DNA of 64,000 nucleotides from Deltaproteobacteria bacterium. GTDB lineage: Bacteria; Desulfobacterota; Syntrophobacteria; BM002. Within the stretch, counting starts at the first letter, position 1; each line of letters opens with the position of its first letter. This document shows, in pieces, positions 4,413 to 47,110 of this stretch. The stretch lies in contig JAFDGZ010000006.1 in the NCBI GenBank assembly GCA_019309045.1, forward strand, positions 2,066 to 66,065, read 5' to 3'. The position numbers were made by a program, and so were the translations under genes. The notes below the pieces were generated by a model. It did no database searches. It saw only the letters and a program-made list of their open reading frames with translations, and had not been told where the DNA came from.

Positions 4413-5681
4413 TCAGCTGGCGAACCTCAAATCGCTGCTTGCGTCGTAAAAGACATTGGCAGGCTGCTCACCGGCCAGCACAAGGCGATAGCTGTCAACC
4501 ATTATGCCGGCGATGATCTGATTTGTCATAATGACGGAGGGCTCTGGCCGGTATATACACGACTCTCGCAACCGTCTGAATGAAGAGATCTGTCTTTCCG
4601 CAACAATCTCTTGCAGACCCAGAAGCTCAGCAGGGGTACCATCATTGCTGCCGGGGCTGTAGACAATGACCTGGCCTGCAGCCACGTTGCTGCCGCCGCT
4701 CACCAGCATCTTTCCCGTAAGCTGACACAGTTCGCTTATAACAATTCTGCTTTCAAAATTGTCCACACAGTCGAAGACCACATCAAACCCAGAGATGTCA
4801 CTGTCCCTGCTCAGATAGTCCACCACAGCTACCGCCTCTGTGGTGAACATAGAATTGAGTCGCCTGGCAAGGATTTCAGCTTTGTTGGAACCAACGCCGG
4901 CATGCAATAGCACCTGTCTGTTGAGGTTGGTTACTTCCACCACATCGGGATCAATAAAGGTAATGTGTCGAAAACCAGAAAATCCCAGGGCAAGGCCGAC
5001 AAAGTTCCCGAGCGCTCCCGCCCCTACCACACAGATCTTCTTGGTGGCACTGTCGATGACCACCTGCTTGCTCTTGTAAGAAACGACTTCACTGGGTACT
5101 GGCCATCCCAGCAAAACGTTCTTGGTATCTTCCAATGCCAGACCAGCAGCAATTATCCCCAGAATGCCGTCATGCACACATTCTCCCGGCAGCTGTCTGG
5201 CACAGACGATCTCTTCGAGCTCCTGCCACTCGCGCCCTTTCCTGTAGGTGAATACCTTGCAGCCCTGCTCATTGTTTTTCTGGTAGCAGAAGGCCCTGAC
5301 AAGTGGAACGTCATCCTGGTAGGCTCTGTTGAGCATCAGCTTGTTGGCAAGGCCAAACTGACTCAGATCAACTATTAGCTGGCAGTCACGAAAAATATCG
5401 TCCCACATGGGATGCGTGTAGAATCCCTCGACATGCGTCAATCTCAGCTTGGGATTCAGCTGACTTGCCGCGTCTGCGAGCCCCTCGTGCAACCATGGAG
5501 CAATCACCACCAGGTTACAGATGCCAAGAGCTGCAGCGGCCAGCAAGTAGTGAGAGGCGAGGTAGTCGGAATCGCCAACAACACCTATCTTGGCGCGCTC
5601 GAGAACACTCTGATTCCAACCCGGAATCCGCAGCTGTCTGTCCAGTCTATCTTCAAACATGGTTTGTCTTGCCAGCGGCAA
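4413..5681 (-). CDS. E1-like (ThiF/MoeB/HesA superfamily) adenylyltransferase with a degenerate N-terminal and a canonical C-terminal Rossmann domain
   Basis: C-terminal half has KICVVGAGALGNFVGLALGFSGFRHITFIDPDVVEVTNLNRQ and VFDCVDNFESR, the classic ThiF/E1 nucleotide-binding motifs. N-terminal half has the same fold pattern (RQLRIPGWNQSVLERAKIGVVGDSDYLASHYLLAAAALG) but GxGxxG is degenerate and there is no NLNRQ. TTG start at 5681, with an alternative ATG at 5660. Confidence 0.85.
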   Translation of the reverse strand: MPLARQTMFEDRLDRQLRIPGWNQSVLERAKIGVVGDSDYLASHYLLAAAALGICNLVVIAPWLHEGLADAASQLNPKLRLTHVEGFYTHPMWDDIFRDCQLIVDLSQFGLANKLMLNRAYQDDVPLVRAFCYQKNNEQGCKVFTYRKGREWQELEEIVCARQLPGECVHDGILGIIAAGLALEDTKNVLLGWPVPSEVVSYKSKQVVIDSATKKICVVGAGALGNFVGLALGFSGFRHITFIDPDVVEVTNLNRQVLLHAGVGSNKAEILARRLNSMFTTEAVAVVDYLSRDSDISGFDVVFDCVDNFESRIVISELCQLTGKMLVSGGSNVAAGQVIVYSPGSNDGTPAELLGLQEIVAERQISSFRRLRESCIYRPEPSVIMTNQIIAGIMVDSYRLVLAGEQPANVFYDASSDLRFAS

Positions 5682-5717
5682 AATAGATTTCCACTCCAGG
5701 GCCCACTCAAGACTATC

Positions 5718-6518
5718 CTACATCCTTTCAATTAGCTCTGGCGGTGGAGAGGTCACTGGTTTAATTTTCTCCGCTATTTCGCCAGCCAGCGCCCGCACCT
5801 CAGCAGGCGATAGATCCAGGGCGGAGTCCACAACTGTCATCTCGGCCTCCTTGCCTGCAATAGTAACCTCACCAGAAAGTATTCCTCTTTTCTTGTAATA
5901 GATCTCCTGGGAATGCCAGCCTTTGTCCCCAATAACAATACAGTAACAAAAGCTGCCGTAAATGGTCTCCAGGACCATAGCCTCTTCAACAGGCTTGTCC
6001 GTAACTAAACAGACGCTCCCCTGGCGCAAGTCCTCAACACTATAGTGATCTTTGCGCAACAGAACTAGATCCCGAATTACCAACTCTTTCTTGGCCACTG
6101 GTCGCCTTACTAGAGGACTGACATAATCCAGCACTGTGAGATGGTTCTCTCTGTCAATTTCTGAGAACATTTCATACTGCAGTTCCCCATGTGAGTGAAT
6201 CCAGCCGTTCACTATCAAATGCGATGGCAAGCTCTCCAAAAATGCTGCTATACTTTCAGGCTTCAGCTCTGTGTGATCCTGAAAATTAGCCTGATCTCGG
6301 GGCAGTCCCACATCAGTGATCACCTCCGGATTGTCTTTGCTCGCTAGAGTAAAGCCATACCATTCAAAACTGTCTTTGAAGATTTCCTTGATCAGTTCAC
6401 ACGTCCTGTAAGCCTTATTTTTTGCATAGGCGGTGATCTGCACCTTTTCAGGCAGCGAATGCAATGGCAACTCCAGAACGCTCTTCCGTTTCAATTGCGC
6501 TAGACTCTTCAGGCTCAT
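5718..6518 (-). CDS. JAB/MPN (JAMM) metallopeptidase-domain protein with a ~130-aa C-terminal extension
   Basis: JAMM signature read directly: upstream Glu ([10 protein letters not shown]), then [18 protein letters not shown] (HxH...SxxD). The ATG overlaps the stop of the upstream AAA+ gene (ATGA at 6515-6518). Confidence 0.7.
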
Positions 6519-7618
6519 GAAAGCCTCGCTTTCACGTAGCTGCCATTTACCACGAATTCTCCCTGGTGTTTACCCGGCAGCTCGTACATCTTGTCCAGCA
6601 GTACCCTGTGCAGGATGCTCGTCAAGCCTCGCGCCCCAATGCCCTCTTTGGTGGCATGCCGCGCCATTTCGGTCAAGGCCTCATCCGTAACCTTGAGCTC
6701 TATATCCCAGGCCCTCAGATCATTGCTGTAGGCTCGCAAGGGACTATCTTCACTCTTGGTAAGAATCTCTTTCAAATTCTGGGTGGTCAGAGAATTGTAG
6801 ACAACCCTCACCGGAAAGCGGGCCATGAGTTGTCTTTCCATGCCAAAAGAGACCAGGTCTTCGGTGAGGAGGTATTCTTTCCAGTCACCTTTGAGCCCGT
6901 GCTCCTCCATGCGGTTCTTGACAATATCATCGATCTTGTCATATACCCCGCCAGCAATGAACAGCACGTGTCTGGTGGACAACATCAACCTCTCTCTGCC
7001 AAGTTCGATGGTATTTTCTACGCCTTCCACCATTTTGAGGAGCCCTTTCTGTACTCCTTTGCCGGAGACATCCTTGTAAGCCGCCTGTTCAGTGGCTATC
7101 TTGTCAAGCTCATCCAGATAGACAATTCCCATCTGGGCCACTTGTGAATTGCCTCCTCCTGCTATGAGAAGATCTACCAGGATATCGCTGGTGTTTTGCC
7201 CCACATATCCTACCTCACTGAATTTGGTCATGTCCTCCACCACAAAAGGCACACCAACCAGTGCCGAGGCGGTCTCCCCGGTGTAGGTCTTGCCGCAACC
7301 AGTGGGACCTATCATCAATATGTTCGCCTTCGGCGTCCTGGTTTGCCTCAGTGCTCTGTCAATATCTTGACCATTCTCTACCATGGCCTCCTTCAGTGCG
7401 TGCCCCAGCCTGCGATAATGGTACGCAATTGCCGTAGCAATAACCCTCTTGCCCTTCTCCTGGCCAATAATGAACCTGTCCATTTCTGCTTTGAGCTCTG
7501 CCGGGGTCTTGTCAAACTCCACAATATGTTCCACCGTTTCATTGGCCTGCAGCTCCCGAAGCTTATCTATCTTTTCTTGAATCCTTCTGCGGCTTTCACG
7601 TGATATACTCTCATACAT
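6515..7618 (-). CDS. ClpX-like AAA+ ATPase (unfoldase) lacking the zinc-binding domain and the IGF loop
   Basis: Present: [23 protein letters not shown], Walker A GPTGCGKT, pore-1 GYVG, Walker [11 protein letters not shown], and GARGL. The track ORF starts at GTG 7657 with no RBS. ATG at 7618 (MYESISR) has a GAGG about 10 nt upstream and is preferred. Confidence 0.85.
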
Positions 7619-7777
7619 ATCAGGCAACCTCGTTTCTACTGGTTGGCCACCAGCCACTGCTGATCATAATTGCCCAAAATACTAAGGTCTTCTCCTGCTG
7701 TTGCAACTACATGGGCCCCGCTGCCGCCATCAAGACCACACCCCAGTCGGTATGACCGCCTTGATGGCTAGCGTCCT

Positions 7778-8218
7778 TCAAGCTCGCTTCGACCCGTTGG
7801 CATACTCTTTCGACAAAAGCACGCAGAAATGCAGCGATGACAGCTGGTGCTCATCGAGTCTGGCGTTCTGTTGATAAAGCCGGCAGGCAAGAAGGAGTTC
7901 TTCCGGTGAATTTGCAAATTGGACATAAGGATTATCCACTATGTCCAATATTGCTTCAGTAAGGCGATATGTTTTTTCTGACACAAGAGAAAACAATGGA
8001 AGATCCATTGACTCTTTTTCCACCGTGCTCAATTTCTCTACAGATCCGTCGTGCTCCATAGACCGTTCGAGGTCTCGGATAAATGTTTCATCGAGTCCGT
8101 ACTTTTCCACAACTGCGCTTACCCTGGAAAATGGCGTTCTGCGAAACACCTGCTTCTGCCTTTTGCGGGCCCTTGTGCTGATAATTCCTTGCAAAAGGTG
8201 TTTCTCAGAGGTACTCAT
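7778..8218 (-). CDS. Hypothetical 146-aa protein (predicted mostly helical, basic N-terminus), member of the Ubl-like operon
   Basis: ORF with ATG at 8218 preceded by GAGGTGGA. Overlaps the upstream gene by 14 nt. I recognised no family motif. Confidence 0.55.
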   Translation of the reverse strand: MSTSEKHLLQGIISTRARKRQKQVFRRTPFSRVSAVVEKYGLDETFIRDLERSMEHDGSVEKLSTVEKESMDLPLFSLVSEKTYRLTEAILDIVDNPYVQFANSPEELLLACRLYQQNARLDEHQLSSLHFCVLLSKEYANGSKRA

Positions 8219-9359
8219 TTTTTACTTCCACCTCACCCGAGATAATTTTCGGATGATCGGCCGGAATGCGGTAGTCGTCAAAATTGACTATCCTTACATA
8301 GGTGGTAACCCTGTCGAGGCTGTGATAACCGTTTCGCCTTCTGGGGTTGTAGCCATGGTAGAGGGCAAGCAGCCCCAATTCCAGGGAGCGTATCACGTTT
8401 TGGGCAGAAAATTCTGTTGCCGGTGTAAACTGTTTCATACAAATTTCCTGCTTGGCAGCATGTCGGAAAAGAAAAGGGTGTTTGTACCTGTCGAGCACAT
8501 ACGGTCTAGGGGTACCGCTGGTGGATACTGCCACCCGGCAATCAGGAAACAGGTAGAGACGGCCATAATAGTCCTTGAGGGCGTATTCACCCGTATGCAC
8601 GTATACGTGATAATCTCCAGCACGTCCTTCTCTGAACAAGCCAAAGTCATCTAGACTGCAAGAACCCTTATCTGCTATGTACAACAGCAGCGCGACATAC
8701 TTCTTGTCCAATTTCGCCAGCTTTTCCCTCTCTGCCACCTCCTTCTGCAGACGATATTTCTCGGCGACCCTGAACTGCACTTTTGACGCCGCCTCCAGCC
8801 AGTCCTGTAATTCTTTTGCCTCCATAAGGCCGTCTGCAGGGTAGTGATCCTGCGAATACGTATCAGCAAAACTCTCGAGCAGTGTCTGAAGTGAATTGTC
8901 ATCGCGATACCTTTCCGCCTCGCGGTAATAGGAAGCTGGCACGCTCAGCCTTTCCGCCAGTAGAGCCAGGATTTCCTCGCTGTTCAAGGTGCGTCGGTGC
9001 AGACCTTTGCGCCTCCCTACAAAGTGAGGCATTATCTGAAAAATAATAGTCTGCAATTTGTCATCAGGCCCAAAGGCGTCTCTAACCCAGGAGTTTACCT
9101 TGCTGTCGAGCAATCCCGTCCGCAGTCTATGGTAGGAATCCGGGTAGAGCCGGCCATACTGACGCACCAGTGACTCGAGTGTCACCGACCTCACAAAGAG
9201 CTGCCCTGCAACCTGGAGAACGACAGGAAGAGATTCTTCAGAGCCACTTTCTGCCAATACAGTGGCCTCTTTTTGCACCTCAGGATCGAAGAGCAATGGC
9301 ACATAGAGCACCCCTTGCTGTACGACAAAGGGACCATTATTCGCAAGTAGTTTAGCCAT
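8205..9359 (-). CDS. Hypothetical protein with a candidate UBC/E2-like C-terminal domain
   Basis: ORF 8205..9362 (TTG), with ATG at 9359 lying 3 nt after the stop of the upstream small gene. The C-terminal region PRPYVLDRYKHPFLFRHAAKQEICMKQFTPATEFSAQNVIRSLELGLLALYHGYNP aligns by eye to the E2 core ([26 protein letters not shown]...[15 protein letters not shown]). Confidence 0.5.
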   Translation of the reverse strand: MAKLLANNGPFVVQQGVLYVPLLFDPEVQKEATVLAESGSEESLPVVLQVAGQLFVRSVTLESLVRQYGRLYPDSYHRLRTGLLDSKVNSWVRDAFGPDDKLQTIIFQIMPHFVGRRKGLHRRTLNSEEILALLAERLSVPASYYREAERYRDDNSLQTLLESFADTYSQDHYPADGLMEAKELQDWLEAASKVQFRVAEKYRLQKEVAEREKLAKLDKKYVALLLYIADKGSCSLDDFGLFREGRAGDYHVYVHTGEYALKDYYGRLYLFPDCRVAVSTSGTPRPYVLDRYKHPFLFRHAAKQEICMKQFTPATEFSAQNVIRSLELGLLALYHGYNPRRRNGYHSLDRVTTYVRIVNFDDYRIPADHPKIISGEVEVKNEYL

Positions 9360-9362
9360 CAA

Positions 9363-9737
9363 CTACCAATCTCCGCCTTCCTGAGGCTTGATCGCCCGGA
9401 TGGGCACATAAAGATAGTTCTCACCAATTTCAGTCTGCTGTCTCTCCACATAATTAAGCGCCCTATCGTCGATCTCCTTGCCTCTGCTGAGTAGTTTGCC
9501 TCCCTTGAGCTGCCGACGAATCTCTTCTACTATTTGCCGCTCTTCAATGCTCAGGTCTTCCCTGGCCAATGTCTGCTCGCACAGTTGCCTCAGGCTCTTG
9601 CCCTCATATGTACCAGGCTCGTAAATATCAACCAGCCCTTCCCTTGCCTGCCCAGCCATTATCTCTACTACCAGTGGCAGCAGCCTCTCTTCTTTTGCCC
9701 GCCTTGCCACATCCTGGTCCAGCTCTACATCAGCCAT
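9363..9737 (-). CDS. Small protein with a ubiquitin-like C-terminal half ending in GG-DW (candidate modifier precursor)
   Basis: ORF 9363..9752. ATG at 9737 sits 6 nt after GGAGGAG. The C-terminus is KLLSRGKEIDDRALNYVERQQTEIGENYLYVPIRAIKPQEGGDW. It resembles ubiquitin 43-76 and has a diglycine two residues before the stop. Confidence 0.55.
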   Translation of the reverse strand: MADVELDQDVARRAKEERLLPLVVEIMAGQAREGLVDIYEPGTYEGKSLRQLCEQTLAREDLSIEERQIVEEIRRQLKGGKLLSRGKEIDDRALNYVERQQTEIGENYLYVPIRAIKPQEGGDW

Positions 9738-9981
9738 GCTACTCTCCTCCATGCATTTCTTTCGCCAATTTTCATTATTTTAACTCATGGGAAACACAAA
9801 AGGTAAGCAGCGAACATGTCAGTGTCGATCAAGGCGTCACCCGAGGACGGGAGATGATATGTATCTCCAGGGCATTGGACCACTGATGGTTTGCTATCTC
9901 CTTTTCTAGTCATCATCTCCCAGAGGCAGCATTGCCATTCATAGAAAAGAACACCCGTCAAATGGCTCATGCCAAATGGAG

Positions 9982-10683
9982 TCAATCTTTGCACACAGTT
10001 TCACGGGTAAAATCACGAGCCGCGGCGACTCCTTCCTTTTCGGCAAATAGCTGAATCCACTCCTGCACTCGCGCTTCACCGTAAGCATCTTTCCAGGCAG
10101 CCACTATAAGGTCCACTGGAACGTCTGCAAAGGTACCGTGGTGGGCAACGTATTCCATGAAGCGGTTGTTCTGCGCGTCGTAAGGGTGGAAGAGGGAGTC
10201 ATGCCGCCCATCAAACTCCAGAGGCGGCACTCCGTGCCGCTCGCAAAGCTCTCGATTGAAAGTAGGCGTGGCCTTCACCCATTTGCCTTCTAGATAGAAC
10301 TCGACGAAGCCGTGATACACAAAGAGGTTGCTGCCCAGAAAATCAAGAAGCTGCTTTGTGGCCAGATGATTGCGTACCGTGGCAAATCCGAGCCGCGTCG
10401 GGATGCCACAGGCGCGGGCCAGAGCGCACAACAATGACGCCTTGGGAACGCAGAAGCCCCTGCCCTTTGCCAGTACTTTGCTTGCCTGGTAGTGGACCGG
10501 CAGGTGAAAGGCGCAGTATGGATCGTAGCGGATACCATCTCGCACAGCCAGATATAGTCTCACTGCCTGTTCAACCTGATCGTAGCAGCCAGCGACTGTT
10601 TGTTTCGCATACCTTTCCACAGGTAGCTGATCGCTGTCTATGATTGCCGTAGGCTGTAGATAGATTGCCCTGCTCTCTTTCAT
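9982..10683 (-). CDS. Transglutaminase-like cysteine peptidase-fold protein
   Basis: Transglutaminase-core pattern: GRGFCVPKASLLCALARACGIPTR (Cys), then VYHGFVEFYLEGKWVKATP (His), with downstream Asp. ATG at 10683. Confidence 0.8.
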   Translation of the reverse strand: MKESRAIYLQPTAIIDSDQLPVERYAKQTVAGCYDQVEQAVRLYLAVRDGIRYDPYCAFHLPVHYQASKVLAKGRGFCVPKASLLCALARACGIPTRLGFATVRNHLATKQLLDFLGSNLFVYHGFVEFYLEGKWVKATPTFNRELCERHGVPPLEFDGRHDSLFHPYDAQNNRFMEYVAHHGTFADVPVDLIVAAWKDAYGEARVQEWIQLFAEKEGVAAARDFTRETVCKD

Positions 10684-10734: not shown

Positions 10735-11283
10735 CTACGGCAGATTTTTCTGCCACTCTTTGGCAAAGATCTTTGCTACTTTGTTGGTCTGGGAAGGATC
10801 TATCTTCAGTGCTTTGGCAACTTCCGCATATAATCTTTTACGATCGCGGTTTTCGGCATCCACCAGAGTCTGCAAATCTCTCTTTTCTTTTAGCCCCAAG
10901 CCCTTGGTATGGGCCACTGACACATAGCCATCCTGGCCTTCTTTGAGGTTGCCATTCTGGTAATAGGGCTTCGTGAGACTATAGCGGGCTTTCATCTCCT
11001 TCTTCAACGCCCGTATGGTCGGGTTGGAAACTGTGGTCACTTCGCCAGCCCACGCCTCGAGAGCGGTCAGATGAAATAGCTCATATTGCAGTAGCGATTC
11101 TTGGTCCTTCTTGGGGGACTGCTCTTTTTCTTCTGTATTCTTGCCTCGAATGTCACTGACAATCTCCCCGGCAACTGATTCCACCTCTTTTTCAGGGAAA
11201 TAGATGTTGATAGTTACGCAGGCAAATACTGTGAGTATACCGAAAACAACCAAAACTTTCGCCGTCTTCCGAGAACCTTTCAT
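10735..11283 (-). CDS. YdbL-like (DUF1318) periplasmic protein
   Basis: N-terminal TM/signal segment. C-terminal GQDGYVSV...LVDAENRDRKRLYAEVAKAL matches the DUF1318/YdbL pattern. ATG at 11283 lies 5 nt after GGAGAGG; the track start is GTG 11289. Confidence 0.7.
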   Translation of the reverse strand: MKGSRKTAKVLVVFGILTVFACVTINIYFPEKEVESVAGEIVSDIRGKNTEEKEQSPKKDQESLLQYELFHLTALEAWAGEVTTVSNPTIRALKKEMKARYSLTKPYYQNGNLKEGQDGYVSVAHTKGLGLKEKRDLQTLVDAENRDRKRLYAEVAKALKIDPSQTNKVAKIFAKEWQKNLP

Positions 11284-11405
11284 TTCCACCTCTCCCCTTG
11301 TCCCCCGGTTAACACCACATTACTCTAATCTGCATCCATCGGGCTGGCAAGTCGGGGCATCAGCAGAACAACCCCCACTTCCCAGAACAGACTGGCGCAT
11401 TGGGG

Positions 11406-14400
11406 CTATTTTATCACTGGCCCAGTGCTGTCAGCGGTGATCCGTTTCAGGCGTCCCACCATATCTTTGAAACTTACTCGATTATCGACGTTTTGGTTGA
11501 TGACATCAACTCCCGTAAGTCCAGCTCTTCGTACCAGATATTCCTTGCCCCCTTCTTTGACAATACCGTTCACCTTAAAGATATCATTCTGCAAAGAAGC
11601 TCGCACCCCCATTTTTCTATAGGAAAAATGCTTGAAAAAGGGAGTGAGAAGTCTGGCTGCCCCCATGAAGGGACTCTGAGCCCCGCCTAGTTGGGCAATG
11701 TGGTCTATGGCCTTCAGGCTGATTTTCTGCCTGACCCCTTTCTTTTTTACAGTCTGTAGCAACAGGTCAAAACTCTGCGGTTGCCCGTCCACAATCTCCA
11801 GATCGTTGACATAGCCGCTGAGAATTCCCTGAACTCTGCCGAAACCGGTTCCTCTAGTGGCAAGGTCGAGATTCAGGTCCTTTACTTTCACATTGCACCT
11901 GAGAAGGGGGGCGGGAGAATAGATGGCGCTCGCACCTAAATCCGAGATGAGCAGTTCACCGTCGAAAACGTGCACAGTCACGTGCCCCGAAGTGGTAATG
12001 GTGTCTTTTTCGACTACAATCGGTGCCAGTCGGCCTGTCACATCCCCATTGATGGGCCGAGGCCACATATCGTGCAGCAATGGCTGCAGCTCTTTGATGT
12101 CGATAGCCATACTGGTCTGTAAATGGGGCCGTCCGCTGTAGGGATTGCGCACCTCGATCCGGCCTAGACTCACTTTTCCCCCTGGCAGGAAAAGCTCAAC
12201 TCCATTCTTCACTCTCAGGGTATTACCCACGCTTTCGAGGTTCAAATGGAGCGGCTGTTCCGAGAAAAGCGGCAGTTTCAGAATCTCCACGGCTAGAAAC
12301 CCATTTACTGCCTTGCCTGCTGTACCCTTTGAACCACTTTGATAGCTGATGGGAAAATCGACTTTTATTCCCTCTATTCCTATTTTCTTCTCCGGCACCA
12401 CCAGACTCCCATCTCTCCAGCGAAGGTGACCTGTTCCCTGCTTTTGAGACCCATTGCTAGATAAGGAAAACTCCCCGGATACTGTGCCGCTCACCTGCAA
12501 TGCTGGAAGCAAGGCATTTTCACTCTTGAATGGCTCCACCAAGAAGTGCTGAAAGATGGGCCTCAGCGGAGCTCTGCCGAGAGAAAGCCGCGCATGCACG
12601 GGGCGGCCCTGGCGCTGCAGCTGCATAGAGCCAGTGCCTTCAACAGTCAACAGATTTTTTAGATCCACAACCATTCTCCCCATCTTTAACGACTCTGCCG
12701 CCAGGTCGTAGGTGGCCTCGGTCCGTGCAGAGAAAGCGTTCTCACCAAGGTTCAGATAGAATCTGTCATAAAGCATCTCACCCGCAGGGACCTGCAGGGA
12801 AATGGTGGCCTCCACAGCAGGTTCTTTGAATTTCTTGCGCCCCTTCGCTTCCGCAGTCAAGGAGAGCCCCTCTGCCACAATGCTCTGTTCTTTGTTTTGC
12901 AAGGCCACCTTCTCCAGGACAATTCTCCCCCAGAAAGTCGTCTCTCGCCCAGGCCTCACCGTGGATTCTATCCGAATAGAATCTACTCCCTCCACCTGCC
13001 AATCGCTGGGAAGCAGTCCCAGGGCCGCAAGAGCTTCGAAAAGATGGGTACGCTCACCCCGGAGGCTCAAGTGCGCTTGTTGATCTCGAACATCCAGGGC
13101 AAGCTGAAGGTTCTTCAGGATTGAAGAGTGGAAGCGGAGATGAGGGATTGACACAGATTTCTCGGAGATATCCACGGTACCCTCTGCTGCTCTGAGATGT
13201 ACATCGCTGAACAGCTTCTTCCCTGGACCTAGAGGTAGTCGCACTACAGGCAACTCAGCCGTCACCTCTTCTATGAGAAAGCGAGGATACCTCCCACTGA
13301 GAGAAAATCCCGCCTCAAAAGACTGCAGCTCTATTCCGCCGACAGCTGCCAGAGCTTTATCTATGGTCATCGACAAGAATAGTTGTGGAAAGGGCAGCTT
13401 TCCTCTGGCTGAAATGCGGCCATTCAGAGTGGCAGCCACTCTGGCCCTCTCAGTGGAGTAAGAAAACACGTTGTTCTCCAGGCGCCCCCGCAAATCAGTA
13501 TCCCAGAGCCAACCGGCCGCCGTTTTCGCAGCACGGATCAAGCCGTCTCCTTTGATAATTCCTGTCAAAGCCACTGCACGCAGCTTCTTCTTCGTATCAC
13601 CCGGGAGCAGCCAGGCGATACCAGCGGGAATCACGCTTGCCTCTCTGATTTCCACATATACCTTGGGTTGAGCGCCAAAGTTTCCCTTCAGTGCCCCTTG
13701 CAATTGGGCCAGTCCTTCCACTGTCAACTGAAATACTGGTACGGAGAAACTCTCCTCTCTGAGGTCGAGGCTACCATTCGCACTCACATGCGTCATGATT
13801 GGTGTACGGCTGCTAGCCGCGAGCCTGCGCATGGAAGCCCTGCGAGCGTCCACGATAATGGATCCAAAGTCGAGCCGCTTCGTGTTCAGGTGATACTTGA
13901 ACCGCGCTCTCACCTCCATGGCTTCCACCGATGCCTCTGGACTGTGCAATACTCCCCCCCGGAGAGTGACAAGACACTCTATATTCGGTTTCAGTAGTGA
14001 GACCACTCCTTCAGTAAGCAGATGGATATCTGAGCTGCTGAAGCTGATCTCTTCGGAAGGCAAGCTGAAGTTGGCTGTCGAAGATACTTCCAGACGACCA
14101 TCACTGTGCAAAGAAGCGTGCACCTGTTCGAACTGGATTACTGCCTGGGGAAGCTGCGCAGTAATTCTGCTGTTGACTACCTCCGCCCCTTCAAGCCTTA
14201 TCTCTTTGAAAAGGAAAAAAGCCACCAGCTTCTTTATTATTCTCGAGGTCAGCGACCATTGCTGTTTTTCTCCCTGGCGGCTCTGCTTGGTCAGCACAGG
14301 CTGTCCAGATACGTTGATGCTCAGACCATGCATTAAGAGTTTCTCGAAAACAAGAGACCTCTCACCGAGCCCCCCCACCAGCCGCATGTCCGCCTCGAAC

Positions 14401-14660
14401 TCTTCCAAACTAAGGAGAAATTTGCCCCCAGTCGGAGATGATCTCACCGTTATATGGCCAGCCTTCAAATGCAAGGGGGAAATAGAATACTCCAATGTGC
14501 CAATGTTGACCACAGCTTTGCTTCGCTGAGCAAACGAATTTTCCAGTAGATTTTTGACGCGCCAGGGATGAGTGTAGTAATAATAGGTGAGGCCGGCAAT
14601 CGCTCCCATAAGAAGCAATGAGAGCACGATGACGACAAGAAGTAGTCTCTTGATTTTCAT
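11406..14660 (-). CDS. YdbH/AsmA-like large envelope protein (1084 aa, N-terminal TM anchor)
   Basis: N-terminal anchor MKIKRLLLVVIVLSLLLMGAIAGL, then a long beta-rich repetitive body. It sits directly upstream of a YdbL-like gene, as in the E. coli ydbH-ynbE-ydbL locus. Confidence 0.65.
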   Translation of the reverse strand: MKIKRLLLVVIVLSLLLMGAIAGLTYYYYTHPWRVKNLLENSFAQRSKAVVNIGTLEYSISPLHLKAGHITVRSSPTGGKFLLSLEEFEADMRLVGGLGERSLVFEKLLMHGLSINVSGQPVLTKQSRQGEKQQWSLTSRIIKKLVAFFLFKEIRLEGAEVVNSRITAQLPQAVIQFEQVHASLHSDGRLEVSSTANFSLPSEEISFSSSDIHLLTEGVVSLLKPNIECLVTLRGGVLHSPEASVEAMEVRARFKYHLNTKRLDFGSIIVDARRASMRRLAASSRTPIMTHVSANGSLDLREESFSVPVFQLTVEGLAQLQGALKGNFGAQPKVYVEIREASVIPAGIAWLLPGDTKKKLRAVALTGIIKGDGLIRAAKTAAGWLWDTDLRGRLENNVFSYSTERARVAATLNGRISARGKLPFPQLFLSMTIDKALAAVGGIELQSFEAGFSLSGRYPRFLIEEVTAELPVVRLPLGPGKKLFSDVHLRAAEGTVDISEKSVSIPHLRFHSSILKNLQLALDVRDQQAHLSLRGERTHLFEALAALGLLPSDWQVEGVDSIRIESTVRPGRETTFWGRIVLEKVALQNKEQSIVAEGLSLTAEAKGRKKFKEPAVEATISLQVPAGEMLYDRFYLNLGENAFSARTEATYDLAAESLKMGRMVVDLKNLLTVEGTGSMQLQRQGRPVHARLSLGRAPLRPIFQHFLVEPFKSENALLPALQVSGTVSGEFSLSSNGSQKQGTGHLRWRDGSLVVPEKKIGIEGIKVDFPISYQSGSKGTAGKAVNGFLAVEILKLPLFSEQPLHLNLESVGNTLRVKNGVELFLPGGKVSLGRIEVRNPYSGRPHLQTSMAIDIKELQPLLHDMWPRPINGDVTGRLAPIVVEKDTITTSGHVTVHVFDGELLISDLGASAIYSPAPLLRCNVKVKDLNLDLATRGTGFGRVQGILSGYVNDLEIVDGQPQSFDLLLQTVKKKGVRQKISLKAIDHIAQLGGAQSPFMGAARLLTPFFKHFSYRKMGVRASLQNDIFKVNGIVKEGGKEYLVRRAGLTGVDVINQNVDNRVSFKDMVGRLKRITADSTGPVIK

Positions 14661-43481: not shown

Positions 43482-45815
43482 CTAGAATCCCTTAAATGGG
43501 TTCGGGCCGATCTCTTCCATGGTTTCCATAAACTCAGCTATCATCCCTGGAAGCTTATCGTATTCGTCTATAGCGATTTCTTTTTGTTGTACACGCTCCT
43601 TTTCGAGAGCCAAGCTCTTCAAGGCCTCACCGATCTTGTCCATGCGGATATCCGCCAATTCACTCCCCTTGATCATGTGGCACTGATAGTCGTCACCATA
43701 TTTGCAACCGATCATCAAAATGCCGTCAATCCCCTTAGCGAGTGAATCTTTGATCCAGACCACATTCACCGACCCAAGGCACCGTACAGGAATGACCCTA
43801 ACATAGGGCGAGTAGGTCAAGCCATTCAAACCGCAAATATCCAGGGCCGGGTAGGCGTCATTCTCACAAGCCAGGACAAGAATCCGGGGTTTCTCATCAT
43901 ACTCTTCTGGAACCTCGATAGCCTTAATCATGGATGAGATATTGTCAATGCTATAATCGGCAAAGTTGATGATCCGCTCCGGACAGGCCCCCATGCAGAT
44001 ACCGCATCTACGGCAACGCGTCGGATTGGGAAGCGGGGTTCCTTTCTCATCATCATCTAGGGCTCCAAATGGACATTCCTCGGTGCAGCGCTTGCACTGG
44101 GTACACCTCTGAAAGTAAAAATCAGGATAGGTCATATCCCCAGATCTCGGGTGAACGGCCACACCTCGGTTGGCGGATTCTAGACACTGGATGGCCTTGA
44201 GCGCCGCCCCGGCCGCATCCTCCATGCATTCAGGGATGCTCATGGACCTCCTGACCGTACCCACCGTATAGATACCGGTTCTACGGGTTTCATATGGGAA
44301 ACAGATGAAGTTCGAATCCGCATAGCCCTCAAATAAATCTAGATCCCTAAACCCCGGTCCTTGGCGGTAGGCAAGTTGCATTATCGGATCATCCCTAGTC
44401 GTAGGCACCATACCTGTGCCCAGAACCACCATATCTACATTTACCTTGATTCTTTCTCCCAGGAGAGTATCATTGGCCTCCAATTCTAGCGTACCATCGC
44501 CATTGCCAGACACACTTACCACATCTCCTTTGGTGAGAAAAACCCCTTCATCGTCTTGGGCACTCTTGTAAAAGTACTCATTCAGGCCAAGCGTACGCAT
44601 ATGTTGGTAGAAAATATAAGCCTTAGCCTCTTTGTTATCTTCCCGCACATATTTGGCCTGCTTCAGGGCCACAAGGCTGGTAACGGCGGCAGCATAGGGA
44701 AAATCTGCATCACTTCCCTGCCCTGGGGATTGGATGAAGGCGATGCTCTGTACAGGTTTTCCATCAGAGGGGCGGACGATCTTGCCTTTGGCAGCCATCT
44801 CTTCCAGAGCCACGTTGGTCACCACATTGGGCGACTTGCCGAACCCCAGATGTTCGAATTCACCCTCTGCCGGCTCATACGGTTTCCAACCCGTGGCTAG
44901 AACTACTGCGCCAAAACGCTCGGCCTCGGGATTCTGAAGCAGGATATTGCACGGGTTGTCAGGGGTTGCTTCTTCAATACTAGCTGCCCCGGCCTCGGGT
45001 ATTTCTTCACCCTTTGCTTCCAACTCGGCTTTCTCCTCTTCCGACAAGTCTTGAGGTATATCCCAGACGCTCTTGGTCCCCGCTTTCTTCAAAGTAACAT
45101 CGAAAAGACCAGGGGCCCCCGCTATCCGCGCCACCTCCACGCCGGTACGAATGGTAATCTTCTCATGGGCCTCGGCTTCTTTTATAATCTTATCTATAAT
45201 AGGGTCTTGTAGTGACTCGTACGGTGCAGACCACGGGACTTGTTTCCGCAATTTGGCAGCGTAGCCACCCAAAGCTTCTGACTTCTCAATAACCGTTGTC
45301 TCATAGCCCGCCCTGGCCGCTTCGAGTGCAGCGCTCAAACCTGAAACTCCACCTCCCAGCACGAGGATTTTCTTGGTAATCTCAGCCTCGTAGGGTTCAG
45401 GCGGCACCGTCCTCTGAGCCTTGGCTATACCCATGCGCAGATAGTCCTCAGCCATTTCCTGGATCAGTTCATAGGGATCCTCCACATCTGGTGGTGCTTC
45501 CTCACCTTCCTCGATAGGTTTGTGGCTCCAGACAACACCTTCCCTTAGGTTGACACGTTCCACCACAATGCCATGGCCGAAGTTGAACACATCGTAAAGC
45601 ACACGTCGTGAGCAGGCGGCGATGACAACGGTGTTCACTCCTTCGTTCTCAAGATCCTGCTTTATGAGATCTACACCTTCTGGTGAGCACATGGTAGGAT
45701 GCACCCTGCAGGGCTCTATGTTCATGTCGGCGGCAACCCCCTCCAGGCCGTCTATCTTGAGAGCCTCTCCAAGCCCACAACCTTGGCAGATATAAACACC
45801 TAACTTGTTTTCCAT
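43482..45815 (-). CDS. qmoB: Quinone-interacting membrane-bound oxidoreductase subunit QmoB
   Basis: HdrA-like FAD motif (ILVLGGGVSGLSAALEAARAG), two ferredoxin motifs (CTQCKRCTEECP, CRRCGICMGACP) and an MvhD-like C-terminus. ATG at 45815 follows GGAGG; the track start 45917 is an upstream extension overlapping qmoA. Confidence 0.9.
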   Translation of the reverse strand: MENKLGVYICQGCGLGEALKIDGLEGVAADMNIEPCRVHPTMCSPEGVDLIKQDLENEGVNTVVIAACSRRVLYDVFNFGHGIVVERVNLREGVVWSHKPIEEGEEAPPDVEDPYELIQEMAEDYLRMGIAKAQRTVPPEPYEAEITKKILVLGGGVSGLSAALEAARAGYETTVIEKSEALGGYAAKLRKQVPWSAPYESLQDPIIDKIIKEAEAHEKITIRTGVEVARIAGAPGLFDVTLKKAGTKSVWDIPQDLSEEEKAELEAKGEEIPEAGAASIEEATPDNPCNILLQNPEAERFGAVVLATGWKPYEPAEGEFEHLGFGKSPNVVTNVALEEMAAKGKIVRPSDGKPVQSIAFIQSPGQGSDADFPYAAAVTSLVALKQAKYVREDNKEAKAYIFYQHMRTLGLNEYFYKSAQDDEGVFLTKGDVVSVSGNGDGTLELEANDTLLGERIKVNVDMVVLGTGMVPTTRDDPIMQLAYRQGPGFRDLDLFEGYADSNFICFPYETRRTGIYTVGTVRRSMSIPECMEDAAGAALKAIQCLESANRGVAVHPRSGDMTYPDFYFQRCTQCKRCTEECPFGALDDDEKGTPLPNPTRCRRCGICMGACPERIINFADYSIDNISSMIKAIEVPEEYDEKPRILVLACENDAYPALDICGLNGLTYSPYVRVIPVRCLGSVNVVWIKDSLAKGIDGILMIGCKYGDDYQCHMIKGSELADIRMDKIGEALKSLALEKERVQQKEIAIDEYDKLPGMIAEFMETMEEIGPNPFKGF

Positions 45816-45826
45816 TTGGCTACCTC

Positions 45827-47110
45827 CTACCCGCTCACTATTGTCTGAATAGCCTTCAGGGCCATCCCGGTGGCATGCTGATTGGACGAGACCACATCCA
45901 GCGGTTTCACGGCGCAACCTGTGGCAAACATGCCACCTTTTTCGAGATCAGAGATTACAAAACCATCAGGGTCGTACGCCACATCACACGGCAGTTTGGT
46001 CTCCGCGGTGTTGGGCTCCATCCCAGTGGCGAGTACAGCCATGTCCACCTGCTGCTCGATCTTGGCCCCGGTGACCGCGTTTTCCGCCACCACAGTAATA
46101 TTCTTGCTTCCGGTCTCTTCCCGAACCTCGGCTACCTTGCCCTTAATGAGGAAGATGTTTTCGTCTTCTTTGATCCTCCGATAAAACTTTTCGTAGCGAT
46201 GCCCAGGCGCCCTGATATCAATGTAAAAAACATAGACCTTGGCCTCTGGATATTGTTCTCTCACGTAAAGGGCCTGCTTGAGAGATGCCATGCAGCATAT
46301 ATAAGAGCAGTACGGCAGGTGGTTCTCATCTCGTGAACCGGCACATTGTACGAAGGCAATACTGGATATTTCGGCGTTGTCTGACGGGCGCACGATTTTC
46401 CCATTAGTGGGGCCATTAGGAGCGGCCAATCGTTCCATCATCATATTAGTAATCACGTTATCGTACTCGAAGCCAAGATTGTCTATCTTAGCCGCATCGT
46501 AAGGTCTCCAGCCTGTTGCCCAAATGATGGCAGCTACTTTCAAAGTGATGCTCTTAGGCTGCATATCGAGGTCAATCGCATCGTACTTGCACGCCTCCAG
46601 ACACCGTTGGGCGTCTTCGGTGCCGATAATCTCACGAGAAAGTACATACCGCATGGGAAACGCCATTTCATGGGGAAGATATGCCGCTTTCCGATTATCC
46701 ATGCCAAAATTGAATTCATTGGAGACTTCCATGGTGCACGCCTTGGCGCACTCACCGCAACAAGTACACTTTTCGTTTACGTAACGGGGATTCAATCTTA
46801 TCTTGACATCGTAGTTGCCGGGTCGGCCGGCAACGCTCTCCACCTCTGCCAGGGTAAAGAACTTGATCCTGGGATTATCCTTGATCCTGCGAAAATTGAT
46901 TTCGAGCCCACAGGTGGGAGGACATAGCTTGGGAAAATAATGGCGTAGCTGCGCGACCCTGCCGCCCAGATAGGGATTCTTCTCCACTAGAAACACCTCG
47001 TAGCCCACCTCCGCAGCTTCGAGGGTGGCAGTCAAGCCACTAATGCCTCCCCCCACAACCAAGATGCTCCCCATCTTAGCTGCATCCTCCGGTCTCTGTG
47101 CCTCTGCCAT
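45827..47110 (-). CDS. qmoA: Quinone-interacting membrane-bound oxidoreductase subunit QmoA
   Basis: HdrA-like flavoprotein (ILVVGGGISGLTATLEAAEVG). ATG at 47110 follows GGGAGG; the track start is 47176. Confidence 0.9.
   Translation of the reverse strand: MAEAQRPEDAAKMGSILVVGGGISGLTATLEAAEVGYEVFLVEKNPYLGGRVAQLRHYFPKLCPPTCGLEINFRRIKDNPRIKFFTLAEVESVAGRPGNYDVKIRLNPRYVNEKCTCCGECAKACTMEVSNEFNFGMDNRKAAYLPHEMAFPMRYVLSREIIGTEDAQRCLEACKYDAIDLDMQPKSITLKVAAIIWATGWRPYDAAKIDNLGFEYDNVITNMMMERLAAPNGPTNGKIVRPSDNAEISSIAFVQCAGSRDENHLPYCSYICCMASLKQALYVREQYPEAKVYVFYIDIRAPGHRYEKFYRRIKEDENIFLIKGKVAEVREETGSKNITVVAENAVTGAKIEQQVDMAVLATGMEPNTAETKLPCDVAYDPDGFVISDLEKGGMFATGCAVKPLDVVSSNQHATGMALKAIQTIVSG

Follow-up and report, generated by a model that had tools for sequence, protein, structure and literature searches.

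A six-gene bacterial operon that pairs a candidate ubiquitin-like tagging system with its own ClpX-family unfoldase

A window of 64,000 nucleotides (nt) from Deltaproteobacteria bacterium (GenBank assembly GCA_019309045.1, contig JAFDGZ010000006.1, positions 2,066 to 66,065 of the forward strand) was analyzed, and all coordinates below are those of the window unless a locus in another genome is named. An earlier note on this DNA had described an operon that joins ubiquitin-like (Ubl) modifier, E2-like, E1-like, and JAB genes to a ClpX-type unfoldase. We read this operon as a chromosomal, housekeeping-type ubiquitin-like tagging system with its own unfoldase, in which proteins would be tagged and then unfolded or extracted without a protease, and we consider this reading moderately probable. 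It draws on the linkage of the six genes across several phyla, the motifs of the encoded proteins, and their predicted structures.

A check of the open reading frames (ORFs) in the sequence found six of them, all on the minus strand and tightly packed across 4413-9752, and the gene inventory and order of the earlier note were borne out. The genes are named g1 to g6 in the order of transcription. The features, with the evidence for each in brackets, are as follows.

9753..9981, minus strand: upstream intergenic region of 229 nt, presumed operon promoter region
9363..9752, minus strand: g1, putative modifier precursor of 124-129 aa (ORF, family alignment, AlphaFold2 [AF2] model, Foldseek)
9372..9377, minus strand: codons of the invariant Gly-Gly, G126-G127 of g1 (translation check, homologue alignments)
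8205..9362, minus strand: g2, 385 aa, candidate E2-like protein (homologue alignment, AF2 model, Foldseek)
8439..8480, minus strand: g2 motif H295-P-F-L-F-R-H-A-A-K-Q-E-I-C308, a UBC-like HP...C with a candidate catalytic Cys (translation, alignment)
7778..8218, minus strand: g3, 146-aa helical protein (alignment, linkage to the AAA+ gene)
6515..7657, minus strand: g4, ClpX-family AAA+ unfoldase paralogue (Pfam, NCBIfam, PDB alignment, motifs)
5718..6518, minus strand: g5, 266-aa JAMM/MPN+ metallopeptidase (JAB) (motif, Prok-JAB, 6fjv)
4413..5681, minus strand: g6, E1-like activating enzyme (Pfam ThiF, PADLOC, PDB, conservation)

Every gene junction that had been reported was correct when read off the DNA. 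The g1 stop codon TAG (9363-9365) is followed by TTG (9360-9362) and then ATG (9357-9359), g2 and g3 overlap by 14 nt (8205-8218; ..AAAAATGAGTACCTCTGA), g4 and g5 share an ATGA overlap (6515-6518), and 36 nt separate g5 from g6 (5682-5717), provided that g6 begins at TTG. One junction was absent from the earlier list, a 120-nt gap between g3 and g4 (7658-7777). A sigma-70 consensus scan of 9753-9981 gave no convincing site, and no promoter was identified there.

Genome scans, which used one genome per species, located relatives of g2 in 103 species genomes and relatives of g5 in 108. The hosts were mostly metagenome-assembled genomes (MAGs) of Desulfobacterota/Thermodesulfobacteriota, with others from Binatia, Methylomirabilota, and Acidobacteriota and single MAGs labeled Acidithiobacillales, Pseudomonadota, and Proteobacteria; one host, Desulfoferrobacter suflitae DRH4, is a cultured strain. 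In all, the six genes occur together in about 105 species, most of them uncultured. Among 81 loci whose flanks extended for 3 kb or more (a set that counts some contigs twice), 66 had all six genes. The six-gene arrangement is far beyond chance, and the co-occurrence on which the earlier note had made its proposal depend is thus seen in related genomes. The order g1-g2-g3-g4-g5 was fixed, and the E1 gene lay either after g5 or before g1. Identity across phyla was 60 to 71% for the AAA+ protein and 50 to 70% for the modifier.

Of 57 loci, 49 had a 4-nt overlap of the g4 stop codon with the g5 start codon and 7 had a 1-nt overlap, 56 in all; translational coupling of the AAA+ gene to the JAB gene is thus nearly universal. 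This fixed overlap suggests a stoichiometric AAA+-JAMM complex, as in Rpt/Rpn11. The spacing between g1 and g2 was variable, from an overlap up to several hundred nucleotides. Where the cluster was split, all parts remained in the genome and g3 stayed beside g4. In a single-cell genome, one contig carried s93-?-g2-g5 (s93 is a frequent seventh gene, described below) and another carried g1-g3-g4-g6, while in a second genome g3-g4 lay ~200 kb from the remaining genes.

A remote low-GC (33 to 37%) metagenome variant, represented by four contigs with two distinct sequences, retained all six genes in the order g1-g2-g4-g5-g6-g3 (locus L151, 2057-8224; locus L153, 2036-8405). An archaeal TFB gene adjoins the cluster in L151, and the variant is probably archaeal. 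Since this remote variant keeps all six genes, the association with the unfoldase appears to be old. The L151 modifier ends in ..HELG followed by a 12-aa tail. An AAA+ alignment scan of genome collections for the archaeal-type family recovered nothing beyond the bacterial cluster and genuine ClpX genes, a single archaeal-type E1 query of genome collections returned nothing, and one metagenome scan with poor patterns returned one ClpX and no archaeal-type locus.

The assignment of g4 as a ClpX-type AAA+ protein was upheld. Pfam searches matched AAA_2 (2.8e-18) and ClpB_D2-small, and the closest sequence relative was Helicobacter pylori ClpX (PDB 1um8; 5.5e-55, 190 bits). The Walker A motif (7286-7309), the GYVG pore-1 loop (7199-7210), and the Walker B motif DELD (within 7100-7129) are conserved among homologues; together with the AAA+ large and small domains and the sensor motifs (sensor/D2-small domain), they are shared with ClpX and HslU and place g4 in that clade. 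Scores against the NCBIfam ClpX models, 264.5 bits (cut-off, 359) and 231 bits (cut-off, 370.75), were below the equivalog cut-off (NF003745/TIGR00382). The g4 N terminus is a helical segment of ~45 aa, and the alignment to the ClpX structure begins at residue 43-51 and has a gap precisely at the GIGF/LGF ClpP-docking loop. A C4 zinc site is impossible in g4 because the protein has only one Cys, at position 121. Thus, g4 differs from ClpX in lacking both the N-terminal C4 zinc-binding domain and the IGF loop. Only the N-terminal part of HslU aligned, and the HslU I-domain is absent. By these sequence features, g4 is a ClpX paralogue that is predicted to be unable to work with ClpP in the known way, and ClpP-dependent degradation is unlikely because its IGF loop is deleted.

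The protein encoded between the E2-like and AAA+ genes, g3, belongs to a family with few invariant residues and a conserved NPYL.FA.SPEE motif. The earlier note had called it an orphan. That description stands insofar as searches of Pfam, NCBIfam, and PADLOC assigned no family, yet g3 moves with the AAA+ gene when the cluster is split, and g3 is a candidate adaptor of the AAA+ protein. Residues ~10-70 weakly resemble the C-terminal helical domain of bL20 (PDB 2ghj_A, E 0.0013; Pfam Ribosomal_L20, E 0.019); this match is marginal, was the only one in a profile search of PDB sequences with the g3 family, and is taken as compositional or local helical similarity.

In g5, the JAMM motif E...HxH...SxxD, on which the earlier note was right, is complete and conserved: E52 (6363-6365) and H108-S-H110...S119-x-x-D122 (6153-6197) were invariant in 27 sequences, with a spacing from the second His to the Ser of 8 residues versus the canonical 7. 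Prok-JAB (PF14464) was matched by 11 of the 27 family members (best E, 5e-4), and the Rpn11-like structure 6fjv aligned to g5 on the JAMM motif at a weak E of 1.1. Searches with g5 returned no NCBIfam or PADLOC family and no above-threshold Pfam match.

Pfam ThiF (PF00899) matched g6 at 1.9e-36 over two stretches, with 125.8 bits against a cut-off of 28.1, so g6 is a member of this family. The N-terminal adenylation-like domain is degenerate, with VGDSDY where GxGxxG is expected. Among 48 homologues, the C-terminal adenylation domain is intact (GAGALG at 5007-5024, DPD, NLNRQ, and DxxDN), and Cys375 (4557-4559), which follows a GQ motif, is 98% conserved. Cys375 lies in a short segment, ~35 aa as measured by eye, that links the GQ motif to the C-terminal helices and contains no CxxC zinc sites, and g6 has no large CYS domain. 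The tandem of inactive and active adenylation domains reported in the earlier note was therefore recovered, and this single-chain pair resembles the architecture of a conjugating E1, with a putative pseudo-dimer and a putative role for Cys375. Matches to the PADLOC E1-E2 (Cap2) models (1.5e-16) were confined to the ThiF part, residues 199-342. PDB matches were Uba1, Uba4, and MoeB, with Cap2 (7tsq) at 1.2e-6. The best named NCBIfam matches were ThiF and MoeB adenylyltransferases, all far below their cut-offs.

Translation of the small protein g1 gives 129 aa if it begins at the first ATG and 124 aa if it begins at the second. The second ATG is preceded by a GGAGG box, agrees with the start in public record P0121, and is probably the true start of g1. 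The protein consists of a variable, low-confidence N-terminal helix, a putative beta-grasp body, an invariant RAIKPQEGG, and a DW tail, which with the stop codon occupies 9363-9371, so that the protein of the window ends in ..PQEGG-DW. In alignments of homologues (n = 37 and n = 40), QEGG was invariant and was followed by a nonconserved tail of 0 to 18 aa, and in several species g1 terminates exactly at GG. The GG-plus-tail ending seen earlier in this one protein is therefore a family trait. A C-terminal Gly(-Gly) at or near the end, as in Ubl and sulfur-carrier proteins, is present in g1, and the invariant GG with a variable tail is, as judged from these alignments, the mark of a modifier precursor. 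Activation and conjugation are predicted to take place at this Gly-Gly.

An AF2 model of g1 (predicted local distance difference test [pLDDT], 83.8) had a beta-beta-alpha-alpha-beta-beta-beta order and a flexible N-terminal helix (pLDDT of 54-65 for residues 1-20). Foldseek placed SUMO1 (E 0.14, prob 0.60), GATE-16, Atg8, LC3, and other Ubl domains first, which is suggestive of a beta-grasp fold. The earlier note had confined the Ubl-like part to the C-terminal half; the predicted beta-grasp instead covers most of g1. The g1 family, with 203 relatives, carries no annotation.

The candidate E2-like protein g2 has a family-specific N-terminal domain (~1-215) and a conserved C-terminal domain (~216-385), the latter being the candidate conjugating module. 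Its 618 homologues are all annotated as "hypothetical," and none has a Pfam domain; NCBIfam and PADLOC gave no family for g2. The alignment showed four conserved blocks in the C-terminal 170 residues, FPDC275RV, YKH295PF, Q.IC308, and GY..RRRNGYHSLD. The HP...C motif was invariant in the main family alignment. The other invariant Cys of the family, C275 of the FPDC block (8538-8549), is Ala in the remote relative P0346. A scan of 1.84 billion representatives yielded only 204 g2 relatives, and the remote tier comprised proteins of 430-590 aa that share the C-terminal domain only. In this remote superfamily, the His-Pro pair and the C308-equivalent Cys are the sole near-invariant polar residues. 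The hallmark of UBC domains is an HPN motif with the catalytic Cys about 8-10 residues downstream; in g2, the spacing from H295-P296 to C308 is 13 residues, and Phe297 (Ser in P0329) replaces the Asn.

The AF2 model of g2 (pLDDT, 80) shows the C-terminal domain as a helix, a beta-meander, a long loop, and a long helix, an order of secondary structure compatible with the UBC fold. In a Foldseek search of PDB, E2s took ranks 1, 2, 4, 5, and 10 (UbcH7, Ube2g2, Ubc15, and Ubc2). When the g2 profile was aligned by hhalign with human E2s, only YKHPFL..QEIC and the next helix of g2 were paired, with IYHPNI..GSIC and the following helix of the E2s. Thus, the model and motif are suggestive, and "E2-like" is a well-motivated hypothesis for g2 rather than a result. 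In a comparison of the g2 model with viral structures (BFVD), the best matches, 370-435 aa long, were uncharacterized proteins of podoviruses and crAss-like phages, among them A0A8S5TL76 (prob 0.93, 108 columns, root mean square deviation of 4.4); on the basis of these models, the g2 fold may have a phage relative.

Gene content, motifs, synteny, and co-occurrence were read directly from the genomes, and from them we infer chemical steps, an order of events, and a physiological role. The g5 JAMM peptidase would trim the variable tail of g1 and expose the Gly-Gly. The C-terminal domain of g6 would adenylate the g1 glycine and probably then form a thioester on Cys375, and the modifier would be transferred to g2, whose UBC-like C-terminal domain would receive it on Cys308. 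Target selection would fall to the large N-terminal domain of the same protein, with tagging on lysine. A g4 hexamer, aided by g3, would recognize the tag and unfold or extract the tagged protein; engagement may begin at the flexible g1 N terminus. Finally, g5, made in a fixed ratio with g4, would remove and recycle the tag in an Rpn11-like manner. This tag-then-unfold logic derives from the anatomy of the operon. Because g4 lacks the IGF loop and no protease is linked, unfolding, disassembly, or hand-over would be likelier than ClpP degradation. A more specific version, which we propose only tentatively, is that bacteria and some archaea have a "mini regulatory particle" without a protease, in which a ClpX-clade ring, a stoichiometric JAMM protein, and a g3 adaptor would act on proteins to which a dedicated E1/E2-like cascade has attached a beta-grasp tag.

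Several observations weigh against the tagging reading. The Foldseek matches of g1 had E values of at least 0.14 and TM scores of 0.3-0.4, and none reached E<=0.001; g1 matched no family in Pfam, NCBIfam, or PADLOC, and a profile search of PDB sequences with the g1 family found nothing. The Ubl-like character proposed for g1 in the earlier note therefore has Ubls at the top of the Foldseek ranking in its favor but gained no Ubl family from Pfam or the PDB profile search. The case of g2 is similar: its motif is without the Asn of the canonical HPN; the E2 matches in Foldseek were weak (E 0.4-1.2, best 0.41; TM 0.31-0.34), with none at E<=0.001; the C-terminal profile found no E2 among PDB sequences or in Pfam; and hhalign of the g2 profile against four human E2s gave a nonsignificant E of 0.097. 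Of the UBC-like claim for g2, the HP..C motif and the leading Foldseek ranks of E2s stood, whereas the profiles did not support it. The g5 of the window itself scored E 0.16 against Prok-JAB, below threshold. No target, E3, or protease was identified. In the archaeal-type loci L151 and L153, the AAA+ Walker B motif has D-C in place of D-E, and in L151 the JAMM HxH reads H-Y-F; from these residues, the archaeal-type versions may be catalytically altered or noncatalytic.

In a few genomes (locus L143), the other cluster genes are present with no AAA+ gene next to them, and this too counts against the reading. Two other apparent counterexamples seemed to be without the AAA+, JAB, and E1 genes, and the first of them was rejected. 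In bin63 (CP070689; L001/L016, L118), a 100-N gap (L001, 9451-9550) cuts g3, and the missing genes were located elsewhere in the same "chromosome" record, which indicates an artificial join. The same split pattern was seen in bin617 (CP070692; L038/L095), also deposited as a "chromosome," where a scaffolding artifact is presumed from the bin63 case.

The closest known system is BilABCD (Type I/II Bil, "CEHH/6C"), and the likeness pointed out in the earlier note holds for the shared gene order of Ubl, E2-like, JAB, and E1. In Bil Ubls, a conserved Gly precedes a nonconserved tail of at most 9 residues, and in the E1, BilD, one chain holds both an inactive and an active adenylation domain and has no UFD (PMC10557695). 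The operon has the same kind of precursor, with Gly and a nonconserved tail, and a single-chain inactive/active E1 without a UFD. It differs in that g3 and a ClpX-family AAA+ gene are inserted between the E2-like and JAB genes, g2 is without the CEHH pattern after its Cys, and g6 has only the short Cys375 segment where BilD has a CYS domain of ~80 aa. The g2 profile had no detectable similarity to BilB among PDB sequences (BilB assumed to be included). The operon is also vertically conserved in the core chromosome and not in defense islands, and it falls outside BilABCD. Type II CBASS resembles the operon in the E1 adenylation domain of Cap2, which is similar to g6, and in a JAB that serves as an antagonist or processing enzyme. 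The operon differs in having no CD-NTase or effector, either in the cluster or in its flanks, in keeping E1 and E2 unfused, and in encoding a separate small modifier; it is not a type II CBASS. What survives of the earlier match to Cap2/Cap3 is a generic ThiF-fold E1 similarity, without the CBASS composition.

Other systems share the logic of a tag and a motor. In the 26S proteasome (Rpt and Rpn11), and in Cdc48/p97 with its ubiquitin adaptors, an AAA+ unfoldase, a JAMM peptidase, and a ubiquitin-like tag likewise come together, but the motor of the operon is a single ring that belongs to the ClpX/HslU clade and not to the classical Rpt/Cdc48 clade, it has no linked proteolytic core, and the likeness to the proteasome base and lid is one of logic. 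The Pup-Mpa/ARC-proteasome systems of Actinobacteria and Nitrospirota combine a small-protein tag with a dedicated AAA+ unfoldase, and the flexible g1 N terminus in the model could be an engagement site as in Pup. However, Pup is disordered and is ligated by the glutamine-synthetase-like PafA with no E1, E2, or JAB, whereas the operon has an E1, a JAB, and a GG-ended modifier predicted to be folded and has no linked proteasome genes. The archaeal SAMP/UbaA/HvJAMM1 and Caldiarchaeum E1/E2/RING/Rpn11 systems also have a prokaryotic Ubl, an E1, and a JAMM protein, and archaeal Ubl systems are reportedly linked to the AAA+ machines Cdc48 and PAN in proteolysis. In these systems the AAA+ gene lies outside the operon; SAMP has no E2, and Caldiarchaeum has a canonical UBC E2 and a RING E3, whereas g1 and g2 belong to no family detectable by sequence.

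On one side, the operon is flanked by CoA-transferase, IclR, HMG-CoA-lyase-like, and DUF302 genes and, on the other, by transglutaminase-like, YdbL-like, and AsmA/YhdP-like genes, with RadA, Rho, ComEC, TolB, and HdrA-like genes farther away in the window. No integrase, transposase, or defense genes were seen among the Pfam-scanned flanking ORFs of the window, in agreement with the earlier note on mobile elements, and the cluster was not distinct from its flanks in base composition, with no GC anomaly. The setting is core chromosome and not a defense island. The upstream same-strand trio (transglutaminase-like, 9982-10683; DUF1318/YdbL-like, 10735-11289; and a 1,084-aa AsmA/YhdP-like protein, 11406-14660) is not conserved beside the cluster in other genomes; its YdbL-like and AsmA/YhdP-like genes resemble the Escherichia coli ydbH-ynbE-ydbL envelope operon. 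At 43482-45917, the window encodes an HdrA-like flavoprotein fused to an MvhD/FlpD domain and 4Fe-4S clusters. Such fusions are typical of the energy metabolism of anaerobic Desulfobacterota, and this one is in keeping with the taxa to which the closest relatives of the cluster belong.

Two genes recur beside the cluster in other genomes and are missing from the window. A coiled-coil protein of ~93 aa (s93) is a frequent seventh gene (L050, 7766-8047; L002, 9261-9596; many of L004-L083). Of 28 E1-first loci, 24 have the s93 gene immediately upstream of the E1 gene; elsewhere it is found between g2 and g3 (Binatia and Methylomirabilota) or after the E1 gene. The second, a protein of ~400 aa with an MBL fold and TPR, adjoins the cluster in 28 of 80 loci (L024, 3700-4935; L002, 6143-7336). 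The remaining recurrent neighbors look like lineage synteny and are absent from the window. In two loci with the same g2 protein, a 57-aa ORF was called between g1 and g2 (L002, 7792-7965; L003, 1398-1571).

Four other explanations were weighed, and all four are disfavored. Conjugation could be independent of an E2, with the E1 alone conjugating g1 and with g2 as the main substrate, a scaffold, or a receptor for a g3-g4-g5 unfoldase complex. Archaeal SAMP (with UbaA) and eukaryotic Urm1 (with Uba4) need no E2, g2 has no significant similarity to any E2, and the variable g1-g2 spacing is unlike the fixed g4/g5 overlap. We nevertheless regard this as unlikely: the deep polar conservation of g2 is an HP pair and a Cys 13 residues on, followed by a long helix, which fits a catalytic thiol and not a scaffold; E2s lead its Foldseek ranking; and its position after the Ubl gene equals that of the E2 in Bil operons. 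The ThiF and MoeB matches of g6, its best named ones in NCBIfam, fit a sulfur-carrier system in which g1 would be of the ThiS/MoaD/CysO type, the JAB would trim it, and the E1 would make a thiocarboxylate for a metabolite or tRNA, with g2 as an acceptor and the AAA+ protein incidental. A GG-ended small protein with a JAB and an E1 is also the anatomy of CysO/Mec+ and QbsE/QbsD, in which Mec+ trims the CysO C terminus and QbsD trims QbsE, and the fold assignments of g1 and g2 that favor conjugation are not significant. These ThiF and MoeB scores, however, lie far under their cut-offs, and no rhodanese, cysteine desulfurase, or cofactor-biosynthesis gene lies in or consistently beside the cluster. 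A strictly linked unfoldase and a 385-aa HP...C protein have no role in sulfur transfer, and a single-chain inactive/active E1 is a hallmark of conjugation (as in BilD and eukaryotic E1s; PMC10557695), whereas ThiF and MoeB are homodimers. We think a sulfur carrier very unlikely.

All characterized bacterial E1/E2/JAB operons act against phage (PMC10557695, PMC11601596), and a defense of the Bil, CBASS, or Bub type would put the modifier on phage proteins and let the unfoldase dismantle tagged virion parts or replication complexes. The match of g6 to the PADLOC Cap2 E1-E2 models points the same way, and the MBL-fold neighbor, with a match to the NCBIfam 6A-MBL model (2.8e-14), recalls the "6A" E2-E1-JAB+MBL operons (PMC1779556). 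Against it, no PADLOC model matched g1, g2, g3, or g5, the neighborhood is core chromosome with no defense or mobile genes, and the high conservation across phyla and stable synteny are unlike sparse, fast-evolving defense islands; anti-phage defense is, in our estimate, quite unlikely. Least credible is a Pup-like degron, in which g4 would supply tagged proteins to a compartmental protease, ClpP or another, whose gene lies elsewhere. The closest relatives of g4 are ClpX and then HslU, both of which are protease partners, and Pup/Mpa, like ubiquitin with the 26S proteasome, combines a tag, an AAA+ protein, and a protease. Yet the IGF/LGF ClpP-docking loop of g4 is deleted, the HslU I-domain is absent, and no protease gene was linked in any of more than 100 loci, which makes a degradation tag highly improbable.

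With the tagging and unfolding system as the preferred reading, the operon belongs among the prokaryotic Ubl-conjugation operons, and its distinguishing features include the g3-AAA+ insertion and the stable inheritance across multiple phyla. The earlier note knew of no such operon, and a search of the searchable full-text literature (subscription journals are outside its coverage) likewise found no description of a Ubl/E1/JAB operon with a ClpX-like gene; none of PMC1779556, PMC10557695, PMC11601596, and PMC8665760 describes one. To date, the demonstrated cases of bacterial Ubl conjugation all come from sporadic anti-phage operons (CBASS, Bil, and Bub), none of which has an unfoldase, and the operon may represent a nondefense, unfoldase-coupled ubiquitin-like system. 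If the tag does guide proteins to the motor, the operon would represent a third independent mark-then-unfold solution beside ubiquitin-proteasome/Cdc48 and Pup-Mpa and a bacterial housekeeping use of ubiquitin-like tagging. If the tentative mini regulatory particle is real, the ubiquitin-style logic of tagging, engagement, and deubiquitination in the course of translocation would exist as housekeeping outside eukaryotes and outside phage defense, either assembled independently from a different AAA+ clade or as a relic that predates recruitment of the proteasome. With a tag that guides proteins to the motor, the six proteins would also offer a simple system for reconstituting the coupling of deubiquitination to translocation, and four unannotated protein families, including g1 and g2, would gain functions. 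Cultured D. suflitae DRH4 makes the question testable.

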